Shown: positions 2,107-62,848 of the stretch, piece after piece
Layout of the letters: the number at the start of each line of letters is the position of its first letter
How positions within the stretch are numbered: the stretch's first letter is position 1
IMG/VR virus record: IMGVR_UViG_3300028048_002144
DNA length: 64,000 nucleotides
Origin: a virus
Taxonomy: Duplodnaviria; Caudoviricetes
Reading direction: 5' to 3' (one strand)
Program-made: the position numbers and the translations under genes
Notes under the pieces: model-generated
What the model was told of the DNA's origin: nothing
The model's database searches: none
Seen by the model: only the letters and a program-made list of their open reading frames with translations

Positions 2107-2135
2107 AATATGACAGAAACGAAATGTATGACAGA
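2107..2135 (-). promoter_or_regulatory. Two tandem copies of the TCTGTCATA motif upstream of rep
   Basis: + strand AATATGACAGA at 2107 and TATGACAGA at 2127. Confidence 0.65.
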
Positions 2136-2146
2136 TATTTTTACAT

Positions 2147-2179
2147 AAAAAAGCCATAGAATATTTCTATGGCTTTTTA
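2147..2179. terminator. Intrinsic terminator hairpin
   Basis: AAAAAAGCCATAGAA-tat-TTCTATGGCTTTTT, downstream of ORF 2249-2800. Confidence 0.75.
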
Positions 2180-2248
2180 TTATATTCTTGATATTCAATT
2201 TTGATTTGTAAAATATTTGTACAATTAATTGTATTGGCTTATGAAGTG

Positions 2249-2800
2249 TTAATCTTCTTTGACAATATAATAGGCTTCGTTATCAATATAAATTGGCTTA
2301 TCTTCCGGTTTTAAGCTTGGAAACAAATCGGTAAAAGTTGCGTTTGTTTCATAATCTTTTTCATCCCAAGATGTTGATTTTGTTTCACTTTTCCAGGCTT
2401 CAAGTTTTGAAATTAATTCGTCTTCGCTCAAATTATCTGTTTCTGATATATGAAAAATCATATCACTCGGCATTTCGTGAATCATCCCACCCAATGTCTT
2501 GAATTCTTCGAAATTATAGAAATGGAACGGTTCTCCCTTAACCCATGTTTTTAAACACTTACGTCCATTGGCATCTTTATTAACCTCGAAATCTTCACCT
2601 GGATAAACAGCAATCTTTACTTCTCCATCTACAAATACGAACCTATAAGAAAATGAATCGTCTTTCATGGCTTCATTTTCGTTTTTATAGGAAAATGGTG
2701 ATGGAATTTCAATGCAAAGAAAATCACGTTCAGTTCCTTTATGAATACATTCATACTTTTCTGGCGTGAACGTTCCACTTAACATATATCTGTATTTCAT
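2249..2800 (-). CDS. Hypothetical protein
   Basis: 183 aa ORF with an AAGGAGG RBS. Confidence 0.7.
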   Translation of the reverse strand: MKYRYMLSGTFTPEKYECIHKGTERDFLCIEIPSPFSYKNENEAMKDDSFSYRFVFVDGEVKIAVYPGEDFEVNKDANGRKCLKTWVKGEPFHFYNFEEFKTLGGMIHEMPSDMIFHISETDNLSEDELISKLEAWKSETKSTSWDEKDYETNATFTDLFPSLKPEDKPIYIDNEAYYIVKED

Positions 2801-2851
2801 ATAAAAATTCCTCCTTGTATGATTTTTATAAGATGTCTTTCACTGACATCT

Positions 2852-4420
2852 TTAATTCATTAATCGCAGTGCTTCAGCTGCAAGTTTTGAACGTACACAA
2901 TCCTTTTCTGAGAAATTGATCTGGGCACATAATGGCGAATCTTTCATCTTTTCAGATATATAAGTTAATCCATTATTTCTCTTATTTAGAATAGGATTAT
3001 CAATTTGAGATGGATCTCCACAAACGACTATTTTGGTACCCTCACCGGTTCTAGTTACAATATCCTTTATTTGTGTGATGGTTGAATTTTGCATTTCATC
3101 ACAAATAAGGAAACTATTAGATATAGAACGTCCTCTCATGTAAGCTAAAGGTGCTACTTGTATAGCTCCAGACGCAAATAAATCTTCAATTTGTACTGCT
3201 ATTTCATCATTCATTTCATTGCCTTTACCTCTAATAATAGCTTCCAGGTTATCATAGAATGGTGCTAGTAAAGGTTCCATCTTTTCTTCTAGTGAGCCAG
3301 GTAAATATCCGAATTGCTCATCTGATGTAATATTATTTCTAGTAATAAGTACCTTGTTAAACATCTTTCTTTCATCAAAGACCTGATCCAGGCCAGCAGC
3401 TAATGATAGGAAGGTTTTTGCAGTTCCAGCTTTACCTCGTAGGATTACAAGCGGAATTTCTTCAGCAGGGGCTAATAAGGCATATAGGGCAAACGTCTGC
3501 GCAGCATTTTTAGCCTTAACTCCATATGGAGTAAGTTTACTTTTGTCTATAAGCTCAATCGTATTATTTCTATAAATAGCTAAAGCACTATTATTAAGAT
3601 ATTTTAATACCAGGAATTCATTTGAATAAAATAGATGATTAAGTGCTTCATTATCTTCATCTGTAAAATCAAAAATACTAATAGATTTATTTCTATACAA
3701 ATAGTCTACAAGATTGAAGCTAAGATTTGATACATCTATCTCACTATATAGGCTCGTTACCTCTTCTGGTATTTTACCATTTCTATATATTTCAGAATTG
3801 ATTTTAGATAGACTAGCTTTAATTCTCATTCCAGTATCATTAGTGACTAGAGTTAGATCAGAAATGTCTTTAAAAAAGGCTTTTATTTCCTCTATAATAT
3901 TTTCATCTGGGGATTTATTAACATTATATTTAGATTCTTTTAAAAGATATAATTTGCCTCCTCTAGGAAGTTTGCCATACTCTTTTCCTATATCAGCCTG
4001 GAAAGCTTCAATAAGATTTAAACTCTTTCTAGCATTTCTTCCACGTTCAGATTTTTCGGCTTTAATTTTATCTAATTCATTTAATACTGTATAAGGAATA
4101 TAAATATTATTATTCTTAAAATTAATAAGTGATTTTGGATCTGAAATTAAGATATTCGTATCGAGAACATAATTAGAAATTTGTTTACTATTTCTATCTT
4201 CGACAACATCATCGGCAAAGACATCTTCGATAGATTTTTTAAGTTCATGGTTATCGTTAGTATCATTTAATACTTTGTCTACAACCATTTGTCTTGAGAC
4301 TGACATGATATTATTTGATTCTACAAATAAATCTCTGTCCTCTTTGCTCTCAAAAGAACCTTGTAAGAGGTCATCTGTAATTAAAGTTTTTGGAAGTACA
4401 TTTTTACTAGTTTTTCCCAT
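2852..4420 (-). CDS. phoH: PIN-PhoH family protein (PhoH2/YlaK-like)
   Basis: PIN motif VLDTNIL, Walker A GKAGTAKT, and PhoH motifs GYLPG, YMRGRS, DEMQN, GDPSQID. Confidence 0.9.
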   Translation of the reverse strand: MGKTSKNVLPKTLITDDLLQGSFESKEDRDLFVESNNIMSVSRQMVVDKVLNDTNDNHELKKSIEDVFADDVVEDRNSKQISNYVLDTNILISDPKSLINFKNNNIYIPYTVLNELDKIKAEKSERGRNARKSLNLIEAFQADIGKEYGKLPRGGKLYLLKESKYNVNKSPDENIIEEIKAFFKDISDLTLVTNDTGMRIKASLSKINSEIYRNGKIPEEVTSLYSEIDVSNLSFNLVDYLYRNKSISIFDFTDEDNEALNHLFYSNEFLVLKYLNNSALAIYRNNTIELIDKSKLTPYGVKAKNAAQTFALYALLAPAEEIPLVILRGKAGTAKTFLSLAAGLDQVFDERKMFNKVLITRNNITSDEQFGYLPGSLEEKMEPLLAPFYDNLEAIIRGKGNEMNDEIAVQIEDLFASGAIQVAPLAYMRGRSISNSFLICDEMQNSTITQIKDIVTRTGEGTKIVVCGDPSQIDNPILNKRNNGLTYISEKMKDSPLCAQINFSEKDCVRSKLAAEALRLMN

Positions 4421-4433
4421 ATTTTTCCTTTCC

Positions 4434-4619
4434 TCATCCTATAAGAGCCATTATTGATCTTATTAAAAATACTAAAGTTGCAAGTATAAAAATAAAGAGG
4501 GCGATTAGATTTGTCGCATACGCCCTCATGACTAATTGTTCTTGCTTCTTTAATATTCTATACGTAATAATTCCTTCAATAAGTAGGAAAAGTAGCGACA
4601 TTAGAATATTATAGCCCAT
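4434..4619 (-). CDS. Small membrane protein
   Basis: Two hydrophobic segments; packed in an operon with an RBS. Confidence 0.55.
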   Translation of the reverse strand: MGYNILMSLLFLLIEGIITYRILKKQEQLVMRAYATNLIALFIFILATLVFLIRSIMALIG

Positions 4620-4622
4620 TAC

Positions 4623-5120
4623 TTATTCTCCTTCTTTTACCAGCTTATGTGCAGGATTATCAGATGTGCTAGTGTCTGTTACCTCTGTAATAGGTGTGTA
4701 TAATGTCCACTTTCCATCTTTAGATTTAATAAGTTTGATCTTGTCGTTTTTAACAACCTTGAGATCGTTTTCGTCTGAATTAATAACATGTGAATTATTA
4801 GTTCCTACTTCAACAATAGTAATATCATAACCTTTAAGTCCTACAGAAGTATAATTAGGAACAACCTGCTTGATTTCAGCCTTGCCATTTGTAGCTTCTT
4901 TTAGGTATTTAAGTGTTTTAGCTTGTGCCTGGTCCTGCGCTCTAAATACGTAGAAAATTCCACCACCTAGCGTAACACCAAGAACTAGAATAGCAAATAA
5001 ATACTGTAATGGTTTCTGTTTAGACAAACCATTTGAGGCTAGAGCTGATGCTCCAAAAATTGCTATAGCTAAAAGTGTTATTAAGATAATTATTTCTCTT
5101 GTAGATAAAATAGATAACAT
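4623..5120 (-). CDS. Membrane protein, unknown function
   Basis: Two N-terminal TM segments; operonic. Confidence 0.7.
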   Translation of the reverse strand: MLSILSTREIIILITLLAIAIFGASALASNGLSKQKPLQYLFAILVLGVTLGGGIFYVFRAQDQAQAKTLKYLKEATNGKAEIKQVVPNYTSVGLKGYDITIVEVGTNNSHVINSDENDLKVVKNDKIKLIKSKDGKWTLYTPITEVTDTSTSDNPAHKLVKEGE

Positions 5121-5122
5121 AA

Positions 5123-6184
5123 TTACTCTCCTTCAGTTTCAGTTGCAGGGTTATTAGTTTCTGTATCTGATGATTCTGTTTCATTAGTTTCATCAGTTTC
5201 TTCAGTTTCTTCGGTATTATCAGTTTCTGATACATTCGGATCTTTCTTATTATCTTCTACTGTAATACTTTCTTCGTTAGAGTTTTGCTTTGTAAAGTCC
5301 TTGTCTGTTGTATATAAAACATTATTTAATCCTTTTTTAGAGATACTTACAGGTACAAAAACATCAATATCATCATAGCTCTTAAATTTCATACTAAATT
5401 TAAAGAATGATGGAATAATTTTATTTGTTTTCTTATTAATATGTTTAAAACTATCTTTATTGTTTACTACTTCTATCTTGTTGATATTACCTTTTCTATC
5501 TGTGAAAAGGTTCATTGTGAGATATATATTTTTACCATTTTTTCTGTAAAAGTTTTCGGTTTTAGATTTAAGCAGTTTTGTATTAGTTTCAAATACATTT
5601 CCGATAATAGCTTTTATAGAATCATATGGTAGATCGCAGCTGATTACATAATGATTAAAATCTTTCTTCAAACATTTAACGTTTTTGATATTCTTATTTG
5701 TAATGATTTCATTACTATCTGAATTAGGATCAATTTCTTCGAATTTAGTATCTGGATCATTTTCAGCACTAATTGGTTCGTAAACATTTACTCCCCAGGT
5801 TTTATCTTTTTGATAAAACAGAACATTTCGATCATAATTTTCAATATATCCTTCTTTAATCTTGCTGCCAGATTTAATTTTTAATCGATCAGTATCTTTA
5901 TCTCTGGTATCTTCAAGAGTGATTTTTGATTTTGTCCCCTTGTATTTTTCTTCAAAAGATACATCAATTTTTGTGGGATATACATTGCCTTTCGTTGTTA
6001 CATTAGTAAGAACTTTTCTAACAGAAGGTGGTTTTACAAATATATAGGTTCCAATTCCAGCAATTAAAACTATAACAGACAATACTCCCAATACTTTGAC
6101 TTTGGTACTTAAACTTTTGATAGTACCTTTAGGATTTGACGAAAACTTTTTAAAAAAAGAATCTTTGGTTTCTCTTCGAATCAT
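5123..6184 (-). CDS. Membrane-anchored extracellular protein with acidic T/E-rich tail
   Basis: N-terminal TM helix and C-terminal TEE/TDE/TNE low-complexity repeats. Confidence 0.7.
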   Translation of the reverse strand: MIRRETKDSFFKKFSSNPKGTIKSLSTKVKVLGVLSVIVLIAGIGTYIFVKPPSVRKVLTNVTTKGNVYPTKIDVSFEEKYKGTKSKITLEDTRDKDTDRLKIKSGSKIKEGYIENYDRNVLFYQKDKTWGVNVYEPISAENDPDTKFEEIDPNSDSNEIITNKNIKNVKCLKKDFNHYVISCDLPYDSIKAIIGNVFETNTKLLKSKTENFYRKNGKNIYLTMNLFTDRKGNINKIEVVNNKDSFKHINKKTNKIIPSFFKFSMKFKSYDDIDVFVPVSISKKGLNNVLYTTDKDFTKQNSNEESITVEDNKKDPNVSETDNTEETEETDETNETESSDTETNNPATETEGE

Positions 6185-6258
6185 AAAATAGTCCTTTCGT
6201 AAATATTTCTATATAAAATATGACAGATTGCAGCAGATATTAACAAAAAAAGAAGAGC

Positions 6259-7293
6259 TTATTCGCTCTTCTTAAATAATTTTTTATAACTCTCGTTAAT
6301 AATATGTGTTACTTCGTTAACTATTCTGATAGCACTATTTTTATTTGATACGATAGATTTGCTTAAATCTAACTGCTCTGCATGGACTATATCCCCACGG
6401 TTTAAAGTAAGATAATTAAATATCTCCTCAGATATATCTTTAAAATCATTGTTCTGTATTTTGATTATGATATCATCTGTTAATTTCCCTTTGTAAAAGA
6501 TTTTCCAGAAGTTTTTTCCTACGATAATATCTTCGTCTAAGAATAACCATTTTAAATATCCTTCTAGGGCCTTTAAAGCGGGTAAAATTACGCAGGAGTA
6601 ATCATCTAGTATTAAGTCTGCGTTGATTAGAACTTCAGCCGGTGTGAGCATTTTAATGATGGATATGTCCAGGTCTAAATAACAGTCGGGTAATTTCGTC
6701 TTTAATATTTCCCGTACTTCTTTTACTTTTAAATTTGTCTGTAAAGTAGAATTATATTTATTGATTAATTCTTCTAAAGTAAAGTCTTCCCATTCAGTCA
6801 TAAGAATTAGTATTTCAGCGAATATATAAACTGGCTTGCCTTGAATATTAAGAATTCGTTTCTCTTTGTTGTATTTTAGGTATAAATAATCGCCATAACT
6901 ACTTTGTACTAAATAGTTTATTGGCGTATTATTCTTTAAGGTTAATAAAAGTCTTGAATTAGATTTTAAGGTTTCTATTAACAAATTAAATTTTTCTATT
7001 TTAATATTAGATGAAGTATATGTTTTACTTCTGATATTAGAAGGGTAAGCTAATTTGCTTTCTATAAGTTCTTTTAGTTTTTTAGATTCAATACTATCAT
7101 CAGCAATAATAGCTGTAGTTTTGTTTTTGAACACAAAATGAAGATAATGCTTTTTCTTATTAACAAAAAAGATGATACTAGTTTTATTAATATTCTGGAA
7201 AAGATTTGTGCAAGAAAAAGTTTTTCCGAATAATTCTTTCCCAGAAGACTCTGTTAAAAAATGTATCTCTGGCTTTTCTATATAATAATACAT
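6259..7293 (-). CDS. RnlA/RNase LS-like HEPN endoribonuclease
   Basis: DYSCVILPALKALEGYLK and the HEPN R-x4-H motif (RGDIVH) are typical of the RnlA toxin C-terminal domain. Confidence 0.65.
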   Translation of the reverse strand: MYYYIEKPEIHFLTESSGKELFGKTFSCTNLFQNINKTSIIFFVNKKKHYLHFVFKNKTTAIIADDSIESKKLKELIESKLAYPSNIRSKTYTSSNIKIEKFNLLIETLKSNSRLLLTLKNNTPINYLVQSSYGDYLYLKYNKEKRILNIQGKPVYIFAEILILMTEWEDFTLEELINKYNSTLQTNLKVKEVREILKTKLPDCYLDLDISIIKMLTPAEVLINADLILDDYSCVILPALKALEGYLKWLFLDEDIIVGKNFWKIFYKGKLTDDIIIKIQNNDFKDISEEIFNYLTLNRGDIVHAEQLDLSKSIVSNKNSAIRIVNEVTHIINESYKKLFKKSE

Positions 7294-7356
7294 AATTACT
7301 CCAAAAAAATAACAGCATTACATTATTGTAATACTGTTATTCTAACAGAATATATT

Positions 7357-8007
7357 TTATTCTGCGATAAAAATTATATTTTTTGTAACTATTCCATCTG
7401 GCTTACCATTCTTAATTACTATAGTATTTTGATCGCCTTTTTCGACTTTCCATTTTGCACTAATTCCTGGTACAGGAACTTTTTCGTTTTCTTCGCAAGT
7501 GTATTTTTTAACCACTCGATTGTCTTTAGATTTATATGTTACTGTATATAATTCTTTTTCTTTTTCCTGGTCAAGTAAAGCTACTTTTTTAACTGTAATG
7601 TTTCCTATTTGACCATTAGGATGCGTAAATCTTTCTTTTACGACTACAGCTATAATACCTTTATCTGCGTCTACATTTCCGGCAATTTGAAGTCTGAAAT
7701 TAGGATCTGATTCCTTTTTTGTTACTTCTACCTTTTTACCATTATCTTTAGTAAAACTCTGCTCTTTAGTACCAGATAAAGATAGATTCTTTATTAGAAT
7801 CTCAGAAAAGTTTGTAATTAGAGATTCGTTATCGTTTATCGAGTATTCTCCGTCCAACACTAGCTGGCTTAAACTTGTGTCTACAGCCTTTTGTAATGCT
7901 TTCTCAGCTTCGTTTTCTCGAATATCACGATTAAATACGGTCATCAATATCATTACTGATAATACAATAATGATAAATCCGATAAAGGCTTTATATATAA
8001 TCTTCAT
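7357..8007 (-). CDS. Membrane-anchored pilin/TadE-like protein
   Basis: Single N-terminal TM followed by a helix; last gene of a cluster of pilin-like ORFs. Confidence 0.5.
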   Translation of the reverse strand: MKIIYKAFIGFIIIVLSVMILMTVFNRDIRENEAEKALQKAVDTSLSQLVLDGEYSINDNESLITNFSEILIKNLSLSGTKEQSFTKDNGKKVEVTKKESDPNFRLQIAGNVDADKGIIAVVVKERFTHPNGQIGNITVKKVALLDQEKEKELYTVTYKSKDNRVVKKYTCEENEKVPVPGISAKWKVEKGDQNTIVIKNGKPDGIVTKNIIFIAE

Positions 8008-8024
8008 AAACTATCCTCTTTTCG

Positions 8025-8510
8025 TTATTCGTGAACGCCCACATATAATGTTCTGGTAGTCTTTGTGTTATTAGTGCCTAATACTGTTAATCGAACAGTA
8101 TATAATCCTTCGGAGTTAAAAGTAATTGTTTTATCTACTGAATTTACTGTTGATTTGAATACATCCATTTTCTTATCTTTTTCAGTTTTATCTACAGAAA
8201 TGATATTTACTTTATTTATATTTGAACCTTTAATAAATCCAGTACCATCAGATTTATAATAACTATATGTTTGGTTAACGATAATATCATCATTAACCTT
8301 AAAATCTACTACAGTCTTATGGCTTTCTGCCTTTGCAGCATCGGTAGATTCTTTAGTTGACATATCTGTTTTTTTAACTCCAGCACTAATTTCCTGACCA
8401 GAAATTGTCGTGATAGATAAATTTCCAATATTGCTTATAGCAAAAATAATTACAATGGCGGTCATAGCTGCTATTATTGCTCCACCATATTGATCAAAAA
8501 ATGTTTTCAT
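8025..8510 (-). CDS. Pilin-like protein
   Basis: N-terminus MKTFFDQYGG followed by a hydrophobic helix. Confidence 0.5.
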   Translation of the reverse strand: MKTFFDQYGGAIIAAMTAIVIIFAISNIGNLSITTISGQEISAGVKKTDMSTKESTDAAKAESHKTVVDFKVNDDIIVNQTYSYYKSDGTGFIKGSNINKVNIISVDKTEKDKKMDVFKSTVNSVDKTITFNSEGLYTVRLTVLGTNNTKTTRTLYVGVHE

Positions 8511-8520
8511 AAAAAACCTC

Positions 8521-8664
8521 TTAGCCTATTAACGATAAAAACTGTCTAAATAGATCAGATAAAGGATTATTTGGTTGCATCATTAGAAAAACTACGCCTA
8601 AAAAGATGGTAAAACCAATTAAACCTAAAGCTAATCCACCGTTTTCCTCAATGATTCGCTTCAT
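8521..8664 (-). CDS. 47 aa pilin-like microprotein (not in ORF track)
   Basis: Translates as MKRIIEENGGLALGLIGFTIFLGVVFLMMQPNNPLSDLFRQFLSLIG; GAGGT RBS. Confidence 0.7.
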   Translation of the reverse strand: MKRIIEENGGLALGLIGFTIFLGVVFLMMQPNNPLSDLFRQFLSLIG

Positions 8665-8686
8665 AACTTAAATTACCTCTTCTAAA

Positions 8687-8794
8687 TTAAAAACTTGATA
8701 ATTGAACTAGTGTAGAACCCAAAAAGCCAATCGCAACTATACCTATAACGATAGCTAAAATCGTTCCACCATATTCAGATAAAAAATGTGGCAT
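8687..8794 (-). CDS. 35 aa pilin-like microprotein (not in ORF track)
   Basis: Translates as MPHFLSEYGGTILAIVIGIVAIGFLGSTLVQLSSF; AAGGAGTG RBS. Confidence 0.7.
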   Translation of the reverse strand: MPHFLSEYGGTILAIVIGIVAIGFLGSTLVQLSSF

Positions 8795-8807
8795 GGTATA
8801 TCACTCC

Positions 8808-9143
8808 TTATCTAATACTCGTAGTAATTTCATGTGTTTCATTAATGCTCAATAGCTTAATCTGATATTTATACTCAAGTGTTGCGCTACCATACATATG
8901 ATCTCCATCATTTGTACGACTCATCTTATTGACGGTTAATTTATAACCATTTTTATCAGCTTCGTCTTTCTGGGCAGAAATTACCTCATCTGCAAAATTA
9001 GAATTTTCGATCTCAGTTACATATTTATCTAATGATGCTCTTGCGTTACGTGTAGCAATAGATGATGTAACTAATCCTGTACCAACGAAAACAAGAAGTA
9101 AGATAAGAATTACAGTTACAAAACCTTTAATTATGTTTTCCAT
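8808..9143 (-). CDS. Pilin/TadE-like membrane-anchored protein
   Basis: N-terminal hydrophobic helix and small beta-rich C-terminus; first gene of the cluster. Confidence 0.5.
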   Translation of the reverse strand: MENIIKGFVTVILILLLVFVGTGLVTSSIATRNARASLDKYVTEIENSNFADEVISAQKDEADKNGYKLTVNKMSRTNDGDHMYGSATLEYKYQIKLLSINETHEITTSIR

Positions 9144-9258
9144 AAAACGCTCCTTAATTAAAAAATTATATTTTTATCACTATTATGAATATGACAGATT
9201 AGACCGTGCATAACCATGTATAAAAAGAAAAAGGACGTTAAAAACGTCCTTTTTAAGT

Positions 9259-9570
9259 TTACAGATTGTCAAATTTATCCAATCCATGTAATCTTTTCAT
9301 CTTCTTATACATTCTTAGATATTCAATAGGTTCTGTTTTGATATTGCACATACCGAAATATATATCTAAATTTCCGTTCTTAAAATCATCAACGAGTGTT
9401 TTTAATTTAAAAACGTTATTTCTATAAATTTCTGTATGATCTAAATTGCAACTCTCTAAAAATAGAAGATGTTTGTACAATTTCCCATAATCCTTTAAAG
9501 CTTGTTTAATAACCACGATTGAAAGATTAACTAACCCCGTTGAATCAAAAGTTGTAATTTCTTTCATCAA
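9259..9570 (-). CDS. Hypothetical protein
   Basis: 103 aa ORF with a GAGGT RBS, followed by a terminator. Confidence 0.6.
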   Translation of the reverse strand: MMKEITTFDSTGLVNLSIVVIKQALKDYGKLYKHLLFLESCNLDHTEIYRNNVFKLKTLVDDFKNGNLDIYFGMCNIKTEPIEYLRMYKKMKRLHGLDKFDNL

Positions 9571-9584
9571 ATATTACCTCTTTT

Positions 9585-10625
9585 CTAGTATGGATGGCAT
9601 TTATCTTTAAGTACAGTAAACTTAATACCGTATTTTTCAGATAAAGTCTTTAATTCAGCTCCAAAAGCTTTAAGAGAAGCGCTGTTACCATCTAATGAAA
9701 TTTCCATATGGTAATTAGGAGTAGAACTCTTTTTAAGTTCTTCCATCTTTTTCTTTTCAGCTTCTTCTTTTTCTTTTTTTAAGAGTGCTTCTTTTTCAAG
9801 CTGCTCTTTAAGTTCCTTAGCTTTTGCTTCTGCTTCAAGACGAGCTTTTTCAGCCTCTTCACGTTTTCTCTGTTCTTCGGCAAGTCGAAGAGCTTCCTTT
9901 TCTTTAGCCTGGGCCTTAATTCGCTCTTCATCTTCTTTTCGCTTGTTAACAGCAGCCATCATTTCTACACTGAAACCATTAACATCCAAAGTATCATCAG
10001 ACATATACTTGTTTTTCAACATTGCAAAATCTGATTCATTGAATTTCTGCTCTACGATTGTATTTGCAGTAGAAAGCACAATCTTGATCTGATTATCGAG
10101 ATTATCAACCTTATCCTGGGCAGCCTTAAATTCAATTCCCTGGGCCTTAATGTCTTCCTTGATTGCTTTCTTTGTAGTTGTAAGATTAGTAAAGAAATCT
10201 CTTTCTACAAAACGAGACTTGTACTCATCTCTCAATCCTAATTCTTCAGATACTTCAGTAATGCAACTTCTAGCATACTCAAGCTTTTCCTGACGAATCT
10301 TTTCATCATACTGGTCTGTCTGTAGAAGAATAGTTTCTTTTGCTTCGGAAAGAATGTTTTCAATTTCTTTACAGTTTGCATCAAACTCTTTAATAGGCTT
10401 TTCAAGTTCCTTTTTGATTGTTTTTCTGAACTTTTCAATATCAAGAATTGTTCCACCAATCTTCTTTGCATCAGCTTTAGAACTCTTATAATTATCTTCT
10501 GTAATTACAATGTTCTTGTAGGTTTCTACATATTCCAAAGCTTCCTTTTTAGCCTTTTCAAAGTCGCATACAACAGATGGGACTGTGGTTTTTGCATTTG
10601 TAATATCTAAAATTTCGTTGTTCAT
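9585..10625 (-). CDS. DUF1351-like coiled-coil protein (phage/MGE recombination-module associated)
   Basis: Pattern DFEKAK...YKNIVITED...RKTIKKEL.KPIKEF followed by a long charged coiled coil. Confidence 0.65.
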   Translation of the reverse strand: MNNEILDITNAKTTVPSVVCDFEKAKKEALEYVETYKNIVITEDNYKSSKADAKKIGGTILDIEKFRKTIKKELEKPIKEFDANCKEIENILSEAKETILLQTDQYDEKIRQEKLEYARSCITEVSEELGLRDEYKSRFVERDFFTNLTTTKKAIKEDIKAQGIEFKAAQDKVDNLDNQIKIVLSTANTIVEQKFNESDFAMLKNKYMSDDTLDVNGFSVEMMAAVNKRKEDEERIKAQAKEKEALRLAEEQRKREEAEKARLEAEAKAKELKEQLEKEALLKKEKEEAEKKKMEELKKSSTPNYHMEISLDGNSASLKAFGAELKTLSEKYGIKFTVLKDKCHPY

Positions 10626-10730
10626 GAGTTTCTCCTTTCATACTTTAAAAATATCAATTTTAATATGAAAGATTTTTAAGATAAAAATGAAGGGCTAAAA
10701 AGCCCTTCATTTAATATATTTTTATGGCGT

Positions 10731-11717: not shown

Positions 11718-11818
11718 AAAATACCTCACTTAGGTTTTTGACTACATATTTAATATGACTTGAAGAAAGCGTTTTTCATTGTTTTTAGTAATAAAAAAAG
11801 TGCTAATAATAGCACTTT

Positions 11819-12637: not shown

Positions 12638-12740
12638 TTGTAAGCTCTCCTTTCATACTTAAAATTCTATTTTAAATATGAATTATTTTTAGAAAAAAAT
12701 AACTACCAACAAAAGTCGGTAGCTATTTTTATATTCAATA

Positions 12741-13790: not shown

Positions 13791-13797
13791 GATTTTA

Positions 13798-14007: not shown

Positions 14008-14134
14008 AAAGACTCCTTTCTTTTGAACTTTAAAAATAATATGACCAAAAATAAACAAAAATTAGTGTGGGTAATTCGCTCGAATGAGCTGATAATGTAT
14101 AGGATATTTTTATTAATATATTTAAACCTTATTC

Positions 14135-14177
14135 ATTATAATTTGTTATTATAGAAATTGCAACATTTTTTTTGCAA
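14135..14177 (-). promoter_or_regulatory. Tandem sigmaA-type promoters upstream of the sigma operon
   Basis: Minus-strand TTGCAA(14163-14158)-17 bp-TATAAT(14140-14135) and TTGCAA(14177-14172)-18 bp-TATAAT(14153-14148). Confidence 0.6.
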
Positions 14178-14224
14178 ATATAAAAGAGCGCTTTATTGCT
14201 TTGCGCTCTTCTATATTCTTATAT

Positions 14225-15460: not shown

Positions 15461-15474
15461 AACAGTCTCCTAAA

Positions 15475-17178: not shown

Positions 17179-17189
17179 ACAAATCCTTC

Positions 17190-17921: not shown

Positions 17922-17931
17922 AAAAATACTC

Positions 17932-18973: not shown

Positions 18974-18989
18974 AAAAAGTAGCTCCTCC

Positions 18990-19979: not shown

Positions 19980-20059
19980 AATAGTCCTTTCTATTAAAAC
20001 AATCCTTTTAAAATAAATATGACAGATTTCAGCCATTCGAGAAGAAAAATTTAAAAAAA

Positions 20060-22782: not shown

Positions 22783-22860
22783 TAACTGCTCCTTTGTATA
22801 AAAAAATATCACTCTATCATTAAAAATATGACAGAATGATATTTTCATACAGTTATTTTA

Positions 22861-23520: not shown

Positions 23521-23650
23521 AATATTTTTTCTCCTTAGTATAACATAATAAATTCTTTTTATTTATAATATGACTTGAAAAAGGTATTTTTTACAAAAAT
23601 AAGGTGTATATTTTTTAATATACACCTTATTTATTATAAATATTCTGTTT

Positions 23651-25939: not shown

Positions 25940-26038
25940 CTTTTTGTCCTCCTTGTAAAAAGTTTTTATCGTAGAAAATATGACAGAAGAAAAGAAAAAG
26001 TACCAAGAACGGATTGCTCCATTCTTGATACTTTTATA

Positions 26039-28855: not shown

Positions 28856-29056
28856 TTTTTGAGTCTCCTTCCTTTTCTTAAAAATCTATTTGAAATATGA
28901 AAGATTTTTACAATAAAATACCCCTATGAATATTCATAGGGGCTAGAAAGGAGATAAAACTAGAGCTAGTTCCTTTAAAACTTATACAATATAGATCGCT
29001 CTCATATCTATAATTTTTAGAAACCACCACCCGTAGGTGGTGGTAGTTTACATTAT

Positions 29057-30070: not shown

Positions 30071-30201
30071 ACATTTATCTCCTTAAATAAATAGTATTGT
30101 TTTTCTATATATAATATGACTTGAAGAGGGCGTTTTTCGTTGTTTTTATTCCTATTTTTTGTAAAAAATAAAACCCCTTGCCGAAGCAAGGGATTTTAAT
30201 A

Positions 30202-32422: not shown

Positions 32423-32610
32423 ACATTCTCCTTTCTTTTTAAAAAGCTAATTAGAATATGAAAGATTTTTTAAACAAATTAAGCTAATTTAATTTTGCTC
32501 GTGTTTCAAATAGCTTTTAGTAAACTAAAGGTTATTATCTATATTCTACGCTGTAAGAAAACATAAAAATACCCTCTTTACTTATTATTTTGTAAAGAGG
32601 GTACTATTAT

Positions 32611-33402: not shown

Positions 33403-33490
33403 TTTTATACCTCGTTAAAATGTATTATAAAATTACTTTCATCTATAAGAAATATGACAGATACCAATTTTTAGGTATCTGCCACACGAG

Positions 33491-37064: not shown

Positions 37065-37138
37065 CTTTTATCATCCTTTCGAAGACAAATAATGTCCTAT
37101 ATATAATATGACTTGAGATAGACGTTTTTGGGCTTTTC

Positions 37139-39205: not shown

Positions 39206-39347
39206 TTATATCTCCTTTAAAATAAAACTATGCATTTTTAATATGACTTGAACTGACTGTTTTTAAGAAGTTTGATGTATAAAATTTTATAAAAAATAAC
39301 GCACCACATAAAGTGATGCGCTATTTGCAATATTTTAAATTCTTATA

Positions 39348-42454: not shown

Positions 42455-42594
42455 ATCTTTGCCTTTCTAATCATCTAATTAGTGGTAACTTTTATTATTA
42501 ATATGACAGATATAAGAACGTTTCTTGATTTTTGCATAAAAAAAGAGAAGTTCCAAAGAACCTCTCTTAAAATAAAATATAAACTTTACACAAA

Positions 42595-46054: not shown

Positions 46055-46104
46055 AAGTTCTCCTTAAAATTCAGCTTTTCTATAAAAATATGACAGATTC
46101 GCTT

Positions 46105-52537: not shown

Positions 52538-52598
52538 AATATGACAGTTTTGGCATTGTTTTACGGTTTTTGTACAAAAACATTGTTTCTGTCATATT
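52538..52598. promoter_or_regulatory. Back-to-back pair of GTCATATT motifs in a divergent intergenic region
   Basis: AATATGAC at 52538-52545 faces uvrD (minus) and GTCATATT at 52591-52598 faces the plus-strand gene at 52618. Confidence 0.75.
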
Positions 52599-53420: not shown

Positions 53421-53524
53421 TTCGTTTCTCCTTTCATACTTTAAAAATTCTATTTAAAATATGAAAGATTTTTGCATAAAAATAGATGGACACGGTTAAT
53501 ACCATGCCCATCCATTTATTATTT

Positions 53525-55600: not shown

Positions 55601-55710
55601 AACATACGCTCCTTATTTAAAAAATGAGTTAATAATACAAAAAAGAGAAGATATATAAATCTTCTCTTTAAATAATATGACTAAAAAATATTTAATTTTT
55701 AAGATTACTT

Positions 55711-57498
55711 TTATAAGAATATTCCATGATAATAATATTCAACATCAGAAAGTTCACATTGCAAATCTTTTTTTACTTGTTTCGTAAGACGATCATATCT
55801 CATATATAAAGGTTTATTAGTGTCTAACATAAGTGATGGCACAAAAGCATCATCAGTTGAATTAGTTAATGTAGGAACTGCCTGGTTAAAATACTCCGTA
55901 TACTGCTCTTTATTATTAAAATCTTTTATATCTTTATACACTGATTTCATATGAGAATAAATAATATTCCATATAAAAAGTATTTCTTCATCAGACAATT
56001 CTTCATATTTCGGTAATTTATATCCTGGGAAAATATATTCCAGAGAATATGCTCTAAAAAATCCAGTAATATAAGCTACATAATATAAAGTATTATGAAT
56101 ATCTTCGCTATTATTTTTGTCAAGAACATTATTGATTAGATTATTAGCAATGTCAAATTCTTCAACATAATTCTTGAAGCAATACTTGAGATTTATACCC
56201 CTACCATACAAATTGCAAGTACCTCTAAGTGAAGATGTATCCCAATTATCTTCTACGCCATAAATTGCTTTGTATGGATCGTTATCAAATTCTTCATCAG
56301 AAAAAATAATTCCTTCGGCTTTAGCTTCTCTTTTTAAAGCTTCAAGATATTTAGAATTATCACTTGATACAGGGATACCAGTAATTAGTGTTCTAAATAA
56401 AATTGAAGAGCCACCAAGATAAAACCCATCTCTAAGCGAGCCAGTTGCACGAAGTAGCTTAATACGGTTAAGATATACTATATCATCATAATAATATACA
56501 TGATTCCAATGTAAATTGTCTTCCATCATATCTCCGGTTCCGGATCCAACCTGGCAAGGTCTTACAAAAGAATATACATCTAATTCTTTAAAACGTTTTC
56601 TTACTTCATCAGAATTAGTGTTATTAATCATATTGCTTATGCAGCTTTCCCCATCTTCAAGTGCATAATATCCAGGATGTAAATTTGAGCGTGTTAAACA
56701 CATATCATTAGGTTTACCGTCTACAGAAGGATATTTACACATATTCTGAAATTTTTCATAATCTAATTCAGAATATTTTTCATCGTCATATTGTTTTTTT
56801 AATATAGGATAAAAATTCCCTTTAAATTCAAAAATACTTCTAAAAAACTGTTCTGCATAATACGTTGGACTAACATATTTGTCTGAAAATGATTTTTCAA
56901 TACGGTGAAAACCGTGGTTGAATCTCTCTACAAATCCATTTCTTAAGCAATCTACAAAGCCACCTTTTACTGGATCGCTGCACTTAATTGCTTCTGGATT
57001 CTCATGGTAGAAATTGCTGATATAACAAGCACGGTTATACATTTCTTCCCAACGAGGATACATATCTTCTGCAGATACTTCCTTTGTAAGAAGACGCATT
57101 TTTTCTCTATTCTCACAAGTATCTTCTGGGAGAATAGGTGTATAATCATCAAATTCCTTTTTGTTCTCTTCTGACTTAAACTGCTTACCAGGGAAAAGAA
57201 ATCCTTCTTTGTATGAATCAACAGTTACTTTAGAATAAAGCTCATCTTTAACTTCAAAAGTATCCATATTGCTATGTGTACATGGATGTAAAATTCCCTT
57301 TTTAGCATATGCTGTCAAAATAGGGTGTTTAAGATCACAAATATCGCCACCAATAGCGTCAATAAGTTTTTCGCCAGCTTTCGGATCCTTGCACTCATCT
57401 TTTAAGATATATGTTCCATATTTACGAAATTCTCTTATATGCTTTTCGTAACGTGACATTTTCTTTTTTGGTTTAATTAGTTTCTTAAAAAGTCCCAT
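55711..57498 (-). CDS. Hypothetical protein
   Basis: 595 aa ORF with AAGGAG RBS. Confidence 0.75.
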   Translation of the reverse strand: MGLFKKLIKPKKKMSRYEKHIREFRKYGTYILKDECKDPKAGEKLIDAIGGDICDLKHPILTAYAKKGILHPCTHSNMDTFEVKDELYSKVTVDSYKEGFLFPGKQFKSEENKKEFDDYTPILPEDTCENREKMRLLTKEVSAEDMYPRWEEMYNRACYISNFYHENPEAIKCSDPVKGGFVDCLRNGFVERFNHGFHRIEKSFSDKYVSPTYYAEQFFRSIFEFKGNFYPILKKQYDDEKYSELDYEKFQNMCKYPSVDGKPNDMCLTRSNLHPGYYALEDGESCISNMINNTNSDEVRKRFKELDVYSFVRPCQVGSGTGDMMEDNLHWNHVYYYDDIVYLNRIKLLRATGSLRDGFYLGGSSILFRTLITGIPVSSDNSKYLEALKREAKAEGIIFSDEEFDNDPYKAIYGVEDNWDTSSLRGTCNLYGRGINLKYCFKNYVEEFDIANNLINNVLDKNNSEDIHNTLYYVAYITGFFRAYSLEYIFPGYKLPKYEELSDEEILFIWNIIYSHMKSVYKDIKDFNNKEQYTEYFNQAVPTLTNSTDDAFVPSLMLDTNKPLYMRYDRLTKQVKKDLQCELSDVEYYYHGIFL

Positions 57499-57663
57499 TT
57501 TTTTATCTCCTTAATGAATCGTACTTTATGATAATATGGTTATTTTCTATTAGTATATTATCATATATTTGGTATTTTTCTATATATAATATGACATGAT
57601 TTAGTGTTATTTCGTCATTTTTTGTACTATTTATCTTTTTAGAGATTTCTTGCTTATGGTGTG

Positions 57664-58812
57664 TTAAAAATTTACCTTCTGGAATCTATATGTCCAGAGA
57701 TTAGCTTTAAAATCACCAACCTCATCTGCAGTAGATACTAAAATAGCTCTTTCTGCTAGATTACCAGCACCATCTCTTATAAAACATCCATTGTGGTTTC
57801 TATTATGCCCTGTATTACCTGGACCAATAGCAGCCACTCTATTCCATCCAACACCTTGTAAGTCTCCTAAATCACCATTCCAAGACGTTACATAGATACT
57901 CTGGGTCTGGGAAATATTAGATAATGCACCAGCAGGGAACATGTAATTCACATGTGTATCACAAGTCATATATAATTCATCACCACTAACAGCAAAATCT
58001 GCATTACTGATAAAATCTCCACCCATATTTCTTACTGTTACTGGTTGAGATAGATTTACACTAGTTAGATCATTAGATATAAGTTCTCTACATAGAGTAG
58101 AAGTAAGTGAAGTAGTTCCTCTTGTATAGAAGAGAAATGTCTTACCATTTTTAGTTAAAAGTGAAGGTTGACCTACGCCCCAACCACCTTCAGTTCCAAC
58201 TACTCTTCCTACTTTTGTCCAGTTGTAAAGGTCATTTGATACTGCAAAGCCTATTTCATTATTTGTACAGTCATAAGTTCTACATCCAAGATATGCCATC
58301 AGATAAGAGTAATTACTTCCCTGGAATGAAAAGTTCCCAGATATTACTGATGGATCACAAACCTGTACACTATCCCATGCTCCAGGTGTTGTAGTAAGAA
58401 CTCTTCTACCATTTAAACTAATACCATCTTTTATCTCTCCAGGAGTAGCTTCGTTAGAGCAATAAAGAACTGTTCCATTTATAACTGTAGGACAATATTT
58501 ATACACATATCGCTCTACTTTTTGATTAACCGAAGGAGTTCTTGTATTAGTCTTTCTAAATGTAATCCTTTTAGAAGGCGTACTTTTACTTACTTCTTTT
58601 ACTTCTGCTATAGGTTTAGCATCTTTTAAAAGTGGATTTTCTTTTTTACTTACCTTTTCTTTAACAGAGGGTTTATTTGTAGATTCTGTCTTTGTTTCTA
58701 TTTTTTTATTACTACGTTGGTTTGTTTTAACAACAAAAACAGATAATGTAGATATTCCTATAATTATTAATAGTAACTTGATTAGATTTTTGCGGCATAA
58801 AAAATTCTTCAT
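57664..58812 (-). CDS. Exported glycoside-hydrolase-like five-bladed beta-propeller (GH43/32/130-like)
   Basis: N-terminal TM and linker, then WDS..VCDPSV, IGFAVSNDLYNW and GQPSL blade motifs. Confidence 0.6.
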   Translation of the reverse strand: MKNFLCRKNLIKLLLIIIGISTLSVFVVKTNQRSNKKIETKTESTNKPSVKEKVSKKENPLLKDAKPIAEVKEVSKSTPSKRITFRKTNTRTPSVNQKVERYVYKYCPTVINGTVLYCSNEATPGEIKDGISLNGRRVLTTTPGAWDSVQVCDPSVISGNFSFQGSNYSYLMAYLGCRTYDCTNNEIGFAVSNDLYNWTKVGRVVGTEGGWGVGQPSLLTKNGKTFLFYTRGTTSLTSTLCRELISNDLTSVNLSQPVTVRNMGGDFISNADFAVSGDELYMTCDTHVNYMFPAGALSNISQTQSIYVTSWNGDLGDLQGVGWNRVAAIGPGNTGHNRNHNGCFIRDGAGNLAERAILVSTADEVGDFKANLWTYRFQKVNF

Positions 58813-59058
58813 ATCTTGTATTCCTCCTATTATTTGCCTATCTTTAATATGACAACTTGGGAATTCTACAAAATACGAAGAATGAGATAATTACGATATA
58901 TTAGTGCTTCTATTGCCGAAATTAATGGAGTTCCTATCTTAACGTTTATAAAGAGAAAATATTAGTAGATTATATTAGACTTTAATTTTAATGATAAAAG
59001 AGATAAGATTAGAAATAGATTATTATAATCTAAAGATTTTAATATAGGGAGAATAGAA

Positions 59059-60132: not shown

Positions 60133-60477
60133 TTACAAAACATACATTTCGTGTGCTGAAATATGCTTGTACGGTGCGAATTTATCGTAATTAATGATTA
60201 TAAATTTTCTAGCATCTGGTACTGTGATATTAGAAGGCTCACCCGTTTCGTCCCAAATAGTAGCGTCAATCAGCTTATATGGTACTTCACATTTAATAGT
60301 AAAACCTTCTTGTTTGTCTATATACAAAACACAGTCTGTAGTATCTGTTTTCTCGTCTCCGAATTCTATGTTTATACTTACTTGTGGTTGATATAATTTG
60401 GAGCCAAATTTAATAAGGTCTTTTCTTGATTCATGTTTACCTAGTATCAAATATCCTAAAATTGTCGTTTCACTCAT
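60133..60477 (-). CDS. Hypothetical protein
   Basis: AAAGGA RBS; motif at 60541. Confidence 0.6.
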   Translation of the reverse strand: MSETTILGYLILGKHESRKDLIKFGSKLYQPQVSINIEFGDEKTDTTDCVLYIDKQEGFTIKCEVPYKLIDATIWDETGEPSNITVPDARKFIIINYDKFAPYKHISAHEMYVL

Positions 60478-60620
60478 TTTAAAATCCTTTACTAAATTAC
60501 TATAATGCCAGTATTTTGTTTATGAACTTATTTCATATACAATATGACAGAACATACAAAAAGAGGTTTCGCAATGAAACCTCTTTATATATTACTCGTA
60601 TATTACATTTCATTCACACA

Positions 60621-61304
60621 CTACATTTCAAGTGTTACATTTTCATCTAAAGTTACATTCTCAGATACTTTTGTCTTGCTGTTATAACCAGATACATAAT
60701 CATAAAACTCTGCACAAGCAAGAGCCATGTATGGCATAGTGAAGAAAAGATTAAGAATATTAAGTGTAAACATACCAAGGATTGCCCAGCCAATGAATGA
60801 TAACTCAAGTACGAAAAGATGCCACTTATTTCCATGCATCATCTGTCTGGACTCTGTAATTACTTCTTTCCAATTCTTATTTGGATCCTCTGCTAAAATA
60901 TAAGGAACCATTGCATATGAGAAACATTTTACATATGCTGGAATAATAAGAAGTGACCAAAGGAGATAAAAAAGACCTGTCATGAACATTGTAAAAGTAA
61001 TGTTAAGCCATTCCTTACCCTTGAAATAAGCAAATAGTTCTTTCTTTGTTACTTCGATTCCTCTGTTCTTCTTCATAATGTATGAAACCATACCAACACC
61101 CATTGGACAACCAATAAAGATTGAACACAGTGATAAGATCGAAAGAATTGGAACAATACTTCCAAGAATTCCTGCAACAGTACCAACGATCGCACCACCT
61201 ATCATACTAACTACAAGCCCTAGCATGATAACTCCGACAATCTGGAGACCACATTCCTTTCTAACAGATTTTGCTTTGTTTTTAATTGCTTTTCTCGAAT
61301 ACAT
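60621..61304 (-). CDS. DUF975 family membrane protein
   Basis: LWSLLIIP...SYAMVPYILAE.P...SRQMMHGNKW.LFVLELSFIGW. Confidence 0.85.
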   Translation of the reverse strand: MYSRKAIKNKAKSVRKECGLQIVGVIMLGLVVSMIGGAIVGTVAGILGSIVPILSILSLCSIFIGCPMGVGMVSYIMKKNRGIEVTKKELFAYFKGKEWLNITFTMFMTGLFYLLWSLLIIPAYVKCFSYAMVPYILAEDPNKNWKEVITESRQMMHGNKWHLFVLELSFIGWAILGMFTLNILNLFFTMPYMALACAEFYDYVSGYNSKTKVSENVTLDENVTLEM

Positions 61305-61705
61305 AATAATTTCCTCTCTAGTTTTAATTATTTTAGTGAAGTTATTGAAATATATGTATTTACTTCATAAATTTATATTTCGTTTATAATATGACAGAAC
61401 AAAAAAGAACGCAGCTATTAACTGCGCTCTTACATGTAAATAATTGTTTTTTTTGGATAGGATTGCCTTAGAACAAAGGCGTAAGACAATAATTTTTGTT
61501 TATTAGTGAGCATATTTATTATAATAAATATTAATTATAAAAGTCAAGAAGAATTGAGAAAATTCTATTCTAAATACAACAGTCTCAGATTAAATGTAAC
61601 TGAAATATACTATGTTGCATTTAATTTGAGAATAAATAAAATAAGTTCGAAGAAAAGATTCTCAATTATATGGAGAGAAAATTCTCATAAACACAAAAAA
61701 AGTGG

Positions 61706-62341
61706 TTAGTTGCCACTTCTTTTTGTTACTTTATAACTATTTGCAATCCCTTCTAATAGTCTATAGTTACAGTGATACCTTTTTATAACACCAGTAACTA
61801 CTTGTTTATTATATATAGTATCTGCTTTTTGCTCTATTTCTTTAATTATTCTTCTACAAAAAAGATACTCTTTTCTCATCAGAATACGTCTTTTTTCTTC
61901 ATCGGAATCTTTAGAAGGCTGGTCTAAATCAATAATCGTATAAACTCCATCTATAACAGGGAACATCTTTTTTATCTCTAAAACAGAAAGTAATCGCTTT
62001 TGATAAAACTGTCGCTCTTCCTCTGGCACTTCCATTTTATCAAGTTTAAACTCACCAACAGACAATAAAATATCGTTCTCATCAACTGGTGTATTCCTAA
62101 TATCAATAATTTCATATACCCTAAAATTTGTCGGGCCTACATCCTTCCAATTCCTGTGTTTTTCTTTTGCAGATGTCAAGGGAATTACATATTGATAACC
62201 ATCGTTATTTACCAAAATCCCTAAATGTGGCTTTTTATTATAGTTTCCCTCCGGATCATACATAACTTCTTTATCTGCATCGTGCAATGTTGCCAGATAG
62301 TTTATATCGATATAAACCATCTTAAAATCTGTTAAATTCAT
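61706..62341 (-). CDS. toxN: Type III toxin-antitoxin toxin, ToxN/AbiQ family
   Basis: YIDINYL...KPHLGIL...YVIPLTSAKEKH...MFPV; lies downstream of tandem RNA repeats and a terminator. Probable start MNLTDF at 62341. Confidence 0.88.
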   Translation of the reverse strand: MNLTDFKMVYIDINYLATLHDADKEVMYDPEGNYNKKPHLGILVNNDGYQYVIPLTSAKEKHRNWKDVGPTNFRVYEIIDIRNTPVDENDILLSVGEFKLDKMEVPEEERQFYQKRLLSVLEIKKMFPVIDGVYTIIDLDQPSKDSDEEKRRILMRKEYLFCRRIIKEIEQKADTIYNKQVVTGVIKRYHCNYRLLEGIANSYKVTKRSGN

Positions 62342-62356
62342 AATTCTCCCCTTTGC

Positions 62357-62390
62357 AAAAAATATGGGAAGCCTCAAGAAGCTTCCCATA
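62357..62390 (-). terminator. Terminator between toxI repeats and toxN
   Basis: TATGGGAAGC...GCTTCCCATA hairpin followed by a U tract on the minus strand. Confidence 0.85.
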
Positions 62391-62504
62391 AAACATTATC
62401 GTTCCTCGCTTTCTGGTGGAGGTTCACCAAACATTATCGTTCCTCGCTTTCTGGTGGAGGTTCACCAAACATTATCGTTCCTCGCTTTCTGGTGGAGGTT
62501 CACC
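62391..62504 (-). ncRNA. toxI: ToxI-type RNA antitoxin: three identical 38-nt tandem repeats
   Basis: Unit GGUGAACCUCCACCAGAAAGCGAGGAACGAUAAUGUUU x3 (62391-62428, 62429-62466, 62467-62504); GGUG/CACC and CCUC/GAGG form an H-type pseudoknot. Confidence 0.9.
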
Positions 62505-62848
62505 AAAACTATATAAATATGTCAACACATATTTAGTTCTTATTTGTTTATGTGAAATATACACGCAGGTATTATATTAATCTTTTATAGAAAAATTGTC
62601 AACACATTTTTTGTTACTAATAATATATCACTATATTATAGGGAATGCAAGTGTTTTCATTATTTATATCGGATAATATGACGTATTTATTATATTTGAG
62701 AAGTACCTCTTTCTTATATTTTTAAAATTTAATCTAAATATAAAAGTAGGTACTTCTCTTATTTCGTTTTATTAAATATTTTATTAATGTCAATATCTTT
62801 TATTATACGATAAGCTGATATGATGATAAAAGTAATATGGTTAAAGAA

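Follow-up and report, generated by a model that had tools for sequence, protein, structure and literature searches.

A Recurrent -35-Independent Promoter-Like Motif and a Candidate Cognate Sigma Factor on a Large, Plasmid-Like Element from a Firmicute of the Gut or Rumen

Introduction

The late promoters of bacteriophage T4 (TATAAATA) are 8-bp words in the -10 region only and are read by gp55, a truncated sigma factor that consists of region 2 only and needs gp33 and the sliding clamp. On the Bacillus subtilis plasmid pBS32, the plasmid-encoded sigma factor SigN (ZpdN) is expressed from host sigmaA promoters and from its own promoter, in positive feedback; its regulon is essentially confined to pBS32 and includes DNA-metabolism genes, its promoters comprise a -35 as well as a -10 element, and LexA guards sigN (PMC6751061). 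In Escherichia coli sigma-70, His455 and Glu458 read the G at -14 of the extended -10 element (TGn), and the textbook suppressor of a -12 change from T to C is the replacement of Gln437 by histidine (Q437H) (PMC2613000). Here, we analyze a promoter-like motif, GTCATATT, and a divergent sigma-70-family protein, P0003, both found in IMG/VR virus record IMGVR_UViG_3300028048_002144. The window, i.e., the whole stretch of DNA that was analyzed, comprises 64 kb (64,000 nucleotides, nt) read out of an element of ~205 kb. The element is large and plasmid-like, and its host is a gut or rumen Firmicute.

Among the described systems, SigN of pBS32 appears to come closest in wiring, since at the level of sequence the sigma gene of the window likewise combines a host-type promoter with a copy of its own motif. 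Unlike the SigN promoters, the motif is not accompanied by a -35 box; moreover, no LexA box is found near the window sigma gene, and the regulon seems to cover nearly all transcription units of the 205-kb element. A tblastn search with P0003 against 72,556 plasmids, a collection in which the presence of pBS32 is unconfirmed, returned nothing at E <= 0.01. In layout, the motif resembles the T4 late promoters, in that a word lacking a -35 partner is repeated across a mobile genome that encodes its own divergent sigma factor. In contrast to gp55, P0003 has regions 2 and 3 and an altered region 4.

Occurrence and Placement of the Motif

Counted as AATATGAC, the motif is present 24 times in the window, compared with 4.57 +/- 2.17 times in 100 dinucleotide-preserving shuffles, none of which reached 24. 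Of the 59 mapped genes, 57 lie on the minus strand and two on the plus strand. The + strand holds 22 of the 24 copies, which therefore read GTCATATT when followed in the direction of the minus-strand genes. With start codons refined via Shine-Dalgarno sites, all 22 sense copies are located in intergenic DNA, which accounts for 9.6% of the window, and none is found in the 57.8 kb of coding sense strand. By simple arithmetic, the chance of such a placement is 0.096^22, or about 5e-23. Equal frequency in coding DNA or in both orientations, which the initial annotation had named as speaking against its promoter proposal, is thus not what is observed. In an unbiased count of 8-mers on sense-strand intergenic DNA, GTCATATT ranked first and was present in 22 of 53 intergenic regions, and the words ranked next (TGTCATAT and TCTGTCAT) are its overlapping neighbors. 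The bare word TTCATATT is not enriched (11 copies versus 13.6 expected). Five intergenic copies of it, together with the 22 sense copies and one flipped copy of GTCATATT, make up the set of 28 considered below (Table 1). Of the two copies of GTCATATT on the opposite strand, the one at 52591 is intergenic and, as had been reported, precedes a plus-strand gene; the other, at 56785, which that annotation did not list, is intragenic and looks like a chance occurrence.

The coordinates given for the motif copies in the initial annotation all proved correct on recount, and so did the greater part of its description. Copies had been said to lie mostly 20-90 nt before a start codon, and the distance is 19-89 nt in 27 of the 28, mostly 30-48 nt. 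The exception, 62675, is the copy that had already been doubted. Such variable spacing indicates that GTCATATT is not a translation signal. It had also been noted that copies often stand just after a terminator; many of them indeed lie behind terminator hairpins, which suggests that the element is built of cassettes composed of a terminator, a promoter, and a ribosome-binding site. A strand-biased chromosome word of the Chi or FtsK-orienting type was considered and rejected, given that copies are confined to intergenic DNA and that their orientation follows that of the genes. A full-text literature search for the word GTCATATT retrieved primers only.

Anatomy of the Motif

Alignment of the 28 copies yields the consensus w-T-C-T GTCATATT N3 W-A-T-R-G/A-A-A, and conservation in the position matrix is confined to the interval from 4 nt before GTCATATT through 10 nt after it. 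CATATT, including the C at -12 and the T at -8, is invariant in all copies. In the register T-15 G-14 T-13 C-12 A-11 T-10 A-9 T-8 T-7, the motif has the geometry of an extended -10 element. A-11 and T-7 are the bases needed by every sigma-70-type -10 element, and both are kept in the CATATT hexamer in 28/28 copies. With respect to TGn, 23 copies have G at -14, preceded by T in 19; in the five class A copies (see below), T replaces this G. Downstream, a pyrimidine-purine step with TAG in about half of the copies had been described, and the recount bears this out: T occupies motif index 13 in 23/28 copies, a purine occupies index 14 in 27/28, and TAG is found in 13-14/28. In this register, the conserved T-purine step sits at -1/+1, so that transcription is predicted to begin 7 nt downstream at the purine of this step (sequence context A-T-R(+1)-R-A-A).

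No conserved column and no shared word at any fixed distance was detected in the -35 region of the 28 aligned copies; the upstream DNA contains nothing but the T-runs of terminators and A-runs, whose distance from the motif varies. As the -35 hexamer expected 16-18 bp upstream is missing, the motif would belong to the -35-independent promoter class. It is asymmetric and oriented with transcription, and it lacks the dyad symmetry of an operator bound by a dimeric regulator.

Two subsets of copies share additional sequence. Class A comprises the five TTCATATT copies, which lie in near-identical cassettes of ~50 bp with a common leader (AAAAATCT-TTCATATT-nnAAATAGA-wTTTTwAAG...GAAAGGAGA); this looks like a module of promoter, leader, and ribosome-binding site that is reused before unrelated genes. 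In the five class B copies, AAAAACG-N6-8-TTCAA directly precedes GTCATATT. Three of these five head recA and the two RecD2-like helicase genes, and class B may thus be a sub-regulon with a regulator of its own.

A Divergent Sigma Factor Encoded by the Element

P0003 itself has no direct match in Pfam. An exhaustive phmmer search with the protein identified 50 relatives among 1.84 billion representatives. A profile of 28 P0003 relatives matches the SigA chains of solved holoenzymes over regions 2-4 (E = 3.5e-11), and Pfam Sigma70_r2 is recognized in 4 of the 28. The neighbors of P0003 in the protein atlas are sigma-70-family clusters plus unnamed phage proteins. Its AlphaFold model has a pLDDT (predicted local distance difference test) score of 84. 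Each of the 50 Foldseek matches listed for it is a sigma factor, in most cases by far from a structure solved within an RNA polymerase complex. Together, these results identify P0003 as a sigma factor.

In the profile alignment, the P0003-family helix ITTFxxxHxxHG overlies sigma-70 FSTYATWWIRQA, and Gln437 of E. coli sigma-70 aligns with His128. Histidine is found at this position in 20/28 family members, including P0003 and the sigma factor of pCY360, a rumen megaplasmid; the sigma factor of L020, a human-gut contig, has lysine (both relatives are described in the next section). Tyr143 and Glu146 of P0003 align with His455 and Glu458, respectively, by profile alignment only; the former column contains Tyr in 20/28 and His in 5/28 members, and the latter contains Glu in 21/28. 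Judged by these alignments, the residues would fit the motif, His128 matching C-12 and Tyr143/Glu146 matching G-14. The likeness to extended -10 recognition by sigma-70 and Q437H therefore extends to both partners, i.e., TGn plus a hexamer on the DNA side and His (or Lys) together with Tyr/His-x-x-Glu on the protein side. However, Q437H is a laboratory mutant of a housekeeping sigma factor, whereas here, as far as a profile alignment tells, the residue would be natural and fixed in a family of plasmid sigma factors. In region 4.2, P0003 has non-basic residues in place of the SigA recognition helix, and a 13-residue stretch of the pCY360 sigma factor is missing from both P0003 and the L020 sigma factor. 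Such an altered region 4.2 would fit the missing -35 box.

The sigma gene is cotranscribed with a small open reading frame (ORF). A small ORF also occupies the equivalent position in both L020 and pCY360; a comparison of the window ORF with that of L020, the only pair compared, revealed no detectable sequence similarity. The host-type promoter of the sigma operon, present as two overlapping forms (Table 1), is one of few good ones on the gene strand. Over bases 1-20,000, consensus promoters of the host type show no enrichment. LexA control of the sigma gene was considered and rejected, as no GAAC-N4-GTTC box with up to one mismatch was found at 13.8-14.3 kb. Downstream of the host-type promoters, and before the GTCATATT copy is reached, the leader of the sigma operon contains an inverted repeat, ATTCG-AG-CGAAT (14074-14085), which is possibly an operator and is not a LexA box.

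Relatives Sharing the Sigma Factor and a C-First Word

A scan based on homologues yielded contigs L018-L022 from the human gut, five nearly identical sequences (88-400 kb, 27% GC) that are collinear with window positions 7-23 kb at protein identities of 23-55%. In particular, identities between L020 and the window are 55% for the ATPase, 41% for the HipA-like protein, 34% for the GGDEF protein, and 26% for the sigma factor. In this gut relative, CTGTCATAT occurs in 7 copies versus 0.30 expected, all on the gene strand and intergenic, and copies precede the orthologues of the ATPase gene and of gene 8808-9143. Judged without direct alignment, the intergenic DNA of the window and L020 looks unrelated except for the motif. 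Directly upstream of the sigma operon, there is a conserved block (window 14225-22782, L020 1402-9663) that contains genes for the T2SSE-type ATPase, a GGDEF protein, and a HipA-like kinase as well as unknown genes. The L020 sigma gene appears to be the last gene of the ATPase-HipA block operon.

A search with the ATPase led to pCY360, the megaplasmid of the cultured rumen bacterium Butyrivibrio proteoclasticus B316, which shares topoisomerase, ParM, signal peptidase, metallophosphoesterase, and DUF1351 genes with the window. On pCY360, the small ORF is followed by a sigma gene, whose product matches the family profile (E = 3e-19) and is annotated by NCBI as sigma-70 family. The dominant intergenic word of pCY360 is CATAAT(A), with 20 sense-intergenic versus 3 antisense-intergenic copies; CATAAT is commoner than TATAAT, and 16 CATAAT copies occur in 65 kb of coding sequence. 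Taken together, the data on the window, L018-L022, and pCY360 indicate that this sigma family is accompanied by a C-first, -10-like word in three lineages. In the whole pCY360 record (NC_014389.1), GTCATATT itself is found 24 times on the forward and 0 times on the reverse strand, compared with 14 and 8 for the reversed control word; the reverse strand is the gene strand in the three pCY360 regions examined (~105 kb). This suggests that pCY360 avoids GTCATATT in the gene-sense orientation, though it uses CATAAT.

Other searches for relatives gave little. pNP144 of Butyrivibrio hungatei shares the ATPase and has no match to the sigma profile. A megablast of 10 kb and tblastn searches with a 762-amino-acid protein and P0003 found nothing in phage and plasmid collections. 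IMG/VR scans with P0001, the topoisomerase, the L020 sigma factor, and two motif patterns gave only chance single matches inside genes, and scans of GTDB with P0056 and an ATPase alignment found nothing related.

In a second recurrent intergenic word, a short core that contains GC stands between a T-run and an A-run (TTTTTATGCAAAAAT). Words of this type are found at ~52565-52581, 53469, 42529, and 2138, and also in L026/L028 (pCY360), and their distance from the -10-like word varies. Where it separates the divergent promoters 52538 and 52591, the T-tract/A-tract word takes the form of a perfect palindrome, GTTTTTGTACAAAAAC, and its pCY360 counterpart, TGTGCAGAAA, is intergenic in 7/7 sense-strand copies. 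Another word, TATGTAAC, follows one motif copy in both the window (2107-2140) and L020 (415-440). Both copies carry unusually long leaders (70 nt in the window, ~150 nt in L020), and the word together with the long leader may represent a conserved leader element.

Table 1. Motif copies and associated features of the window (aa, amino acids; HTH, helix-turn-helix; positions in nt of the window).
Feature	Position	Strand	Context
GTCATATT	2107..2114	-	70 nt before gene 414-2036 (540-aa HTH protein); degenerate second copy GTCATACA just upstream
GTCATATT	6217..6224	-	32 nt before gene 5123-6184 (operon reaching PIN-PhoH 2852-4420)
GTCATATT	9188..9195	-	44 nt before gene 8808-9143; motif also at L020 orthologue
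TTCATATT, class A	10662..10669	-	36 nt before DUF1351 gene 9585-10625
GTCATATT, class B	11752..11759	-	34 nt before recA 10731-11717; AAAAACG-N-TTCAA upstream
P0003, divergent sigma-70-family protein, 349 aa	12741..13790	-	candidate motif reader
TTCATATT, class A	12675..12682	-	37 nt before gene 11819-12637, which comes next after the sigma gene
Small ORF, 69 aa	13798..14007	-	cotranscribed with the sigma gene
GTCATATT	14038..14045	-	30 nt before operon of small ORF and sigma gene; candidate promoter for auto-activation
Two overlapping host-type promoters, TTGCAA-17/18-TATAAT	14135..14177	-	upstream of sigma operon
GTCATATT	20016..20023	-	36 nt before gene 18990-19979; L020 motif at equivalent gene-order position
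GTCATATT	22825..22832	-	42 nt before T2SSE-type ATPase gene 20107-22782; motif also at L020 orthologue
GTCATATT, class B	23567..23574	-	46 nt before gene 22861-23520
GTCATATT	25977..25984	-	37 nt before 762-aa gene 23651-25939
TTCATATT, class A	28894..28901	-	38 nt before UvrD-like helicase gene 26039-28855
GTCATATT, class B	30113..30120	-	42 nt before gene 29057-30070
TTCATATT, class A	32455..32462	-	32 nt before DUF5688 gene 31553-32422
GTCATATT	33451..33458	-	48 nt before SSB-like gene 32611-33402
GTCATATT, class B	37105..37112	-	40 nt before RecD2-like helicase gene 34611-37064
GTCATATT, class B	39240..39247	-	34 nt before RecD2-like helicase gene 37139-39205
GTCATATT	42500..42507	-	45 nt before 42098-42454, followed in the operon by signal peptidase and ParM-like genes
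GTCATATT	46087..46094	-	32 nt before topoisomerase gene 43649-46054
GTCATATT	52538..52545	-	35 nt before UvrD helicase gene 50505-52502; divergent pair with 52591
GTCATATT, flipped	52591..52598	+	19 nt before plus-strand gene 52618-52965
TTCATATT, class A	53458..53465	-	37 nt before gene 53031-53420
GTCATATT	55674..55681	-	73 nt before gene 53525-55600; leader hairpin
GTCATATT	57588..57595	-	89 nt before gene 55711-57498
GTCATATT	58846..58853	-	33 nt before gene 57664-58812
GTCATATT	60541..60548	-	63 nt before gene 60133-60477
GTCATATT	61388..61395	-	83 nt before DUF975 gene 60621-61304
Variant GACATATT-tat-ATAG, one mismatch	62516..62523	-	predicted start 2-6 nt before first ToxI repeat
GTCATATT, exact	62675..62682	-	no gene start nearby; 167 nt upstream of ToxI array; function doubtful

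The toxIN Locus and Inserted Genes

A type III toxin-antitoxin locus is located at 61706-62507, and its ToxN gene is recognized by Pfam (E = 3e-32). Upstream of toxN, at 62391-62507, lies a perfect ToxI-like repeat array (38 nt x 3.1). The one-mismatch variant GACATATT heads this non-coding RNA gene at the expected distance, and the position of its predicted start makes it the likely toxIN promoter. In agreement with the earlier doubt about the exact copy at 62675, the variant at 62516 is the more likely toxIN promoter of the two, as far as its position indicates. The window also contains two IscB-like RRXRR-HNH genes (46525-47766 and 48969-50219). A HEARO/omega RNA (114 bits) accompanies the second of them at 50283-50544, and the 321-nt gap before the first has no Rfam match. 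The GTCATATT motif is missing from both IscB-gene gaps, as expected for inserted mobile genes.

A Proposed Regulatory Cascade

We consider it fairly probable that GTCATATT is an extended -10-type, -35-independent promoter that is read by the element's own sigma factor and primed by a host-type promoter. According to this proposal, host sigmaA, acting via TTGCAA-17/18-TATAAT, would first produce the small ORF and the sigma factor. Host core RNA polymerase carrying P0003 would then read the GTCATATT promoters; the sigma factor would auto-activate through the copy at 14038 and subsequently switch on nearly all other cassettes, including replication, recombination, partition, pilus, and ATPase genes. 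Within the window, P0003 would direct core polymerase to about 28 promoters, each in a cassette laid out as terminator, promoter, and ribosome-binding site. The initial annotation had postulated a dedicated non-sigmaA promoter class with CATATT as its -10 box and a start ~7 nt further on, and the orientation of the copies, the missing -35 element, the relatives, and the sigma residues lend this view computational support.

Several points weigh against the proposal. The link between sigma factor and motif is drawn from co-occurrence in three lineages and from residue logic. The L020 sigma factor has Lys rather than His at the Gln437 position, yet its motif is identical. The 64 kb read are part of a ~205-kb element, and other factors may lie elsewhere on it. 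As TGn plus CATATT retains four out of six bases of the consensus -10 box, a subset of the sites might be open to host sigmaA. Moreover, that the motif is private to the element is presumed from the sequence of the element.

Alternative Explanations

Host housekeeping sigmaA could itself use the sites as -35-independent extended -10 promoters, perhaps together with an element protein that blocks sigma region 4, as T4 AsiA and P23-45 gp39/gp76 do; this seems unlikely to us. The motif does present TGn and a hexamer that keeps A-11, T-10, A-9, and T-7, and TG before TATAAT is common at sigmaA promoters of Clostridium phytofermentans, a member of the Lachnospiraceae (PMC5171806). However, C-12 and T-8 are invariant in 28/28 copies and C-first hexamers dominate in both relatives, whereas selection for sigmaA use would favor T at -12. 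In addition, the element keeps a sigma factor of its own, in which the region 2.4 residue matches the known suppressor of C at -12.

A slightly smaller probability attaches to another element-encoded factor, namely a putative ECF-like (extracytoplasmic function) sigma fusion at the end of the window or a non-canonical RNA polymerase encoded in the remaining 140 kb. In its constant distance to a conserved T-purine start, the short motif is laid out like the promoters of AR9 and phiKZ (AACA-N6-TA/G in the jumbo phage AR9; PMC5312081). However, Pfam and PHROG scans of ~57 window proteins found no RNA polymerase subunit, including split beta/beta'-like ones; the same scans found helicase, RecA, topoisomerase, ParM-like, ATPase, and toxin genes. 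As for ECF sigma factors, their promoters normally carry a strong -35 AAC box, which is missing at the motif copies.

It is very improbable that a host sporulation sigma factor (E, K, F, or G) reads the motif, which would tie expression to the developmental state of the host. The initial annotation had hinted at such a reader (sigmaE, K, or G) because the -10 boxes of these factors begin with CATA, as does the motif core. Furthermore, TCATATT resembles the sigmaE -35 consensus. There is, however, neither a conserved -35 element upstream nor a CATACA-T box 14 nt downstream of the motif; TCATATT as a sigmaE-type -35 box was rejected for want of a -10 partner. In addition, replication and partition genes under such control would be silent in growing cells. 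CATATT as a -10 box is thus retained from the hint, while the host sporulation sigma factor is not, and the lack of a fixed -35 element or a sigmaE-type -10 partner makes the element's own sigma factor the likelier reader. Just as improbable is an operator for a global plasmid repressor or activator beside the real promoters, of which plasmid-wide sets such as that of KorB on IncP plasmids exist: a second, partly palindromic T-tract/A-tract motif does lie near some sites, but GTCATATT is asymmetric, strictly gene-oriented, and positioned exactly at -10 relative to the conserved purine, with no other conserved promoter-like element around it.

Implications for the Megaplasmid Family

Butyrivibrio megaplasmids have been described as carrying mostly genes of unknown function (PMC2914790). 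We found no paper on the transcription of such elements; a 2011 Plasmid article on these episomes lay outside the search. On the evidence of its motif and sigma gene, the element would most likely run its genes largely apart from the normal promoter code of its host. A broader generalization, to which we give a little less than an even chance, concerns a whole family of Lachnospiraceae-type megaplasmids, which would include pCY360 as well as elements of uncultured gut bacteria. Almost every gene of such a plasmid would be transcribed under an orthogonal code that is independent of -35 boxes. The sigma factor, in which a residue like that of Q437H occurs naturally and region 4.2 is remodelled, would read C-first boxes, and box and sigma factor would have drifted together between lineages (CATAAT versus TGTCATATT). 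As pCY360 resides in a cultured strain, the idea is directly testable.

If true, hundreds of kilobases would be insulated from host sigmaA, and a replicon of 200-360 kb would be governed by one master switch, which would also explain the cassette architecture. Promoters and operons would become predictable in related uncultured elements. Moreover, the family would supply ready-made orthogonal sigma/promoter pairs for Clostridia and an expression tool for use in gut Firmicutes. The apparent natural counterpart of the textbook Q437H/-12C change would provide a simple, testable rule for the matching of sigma factors and promoters.

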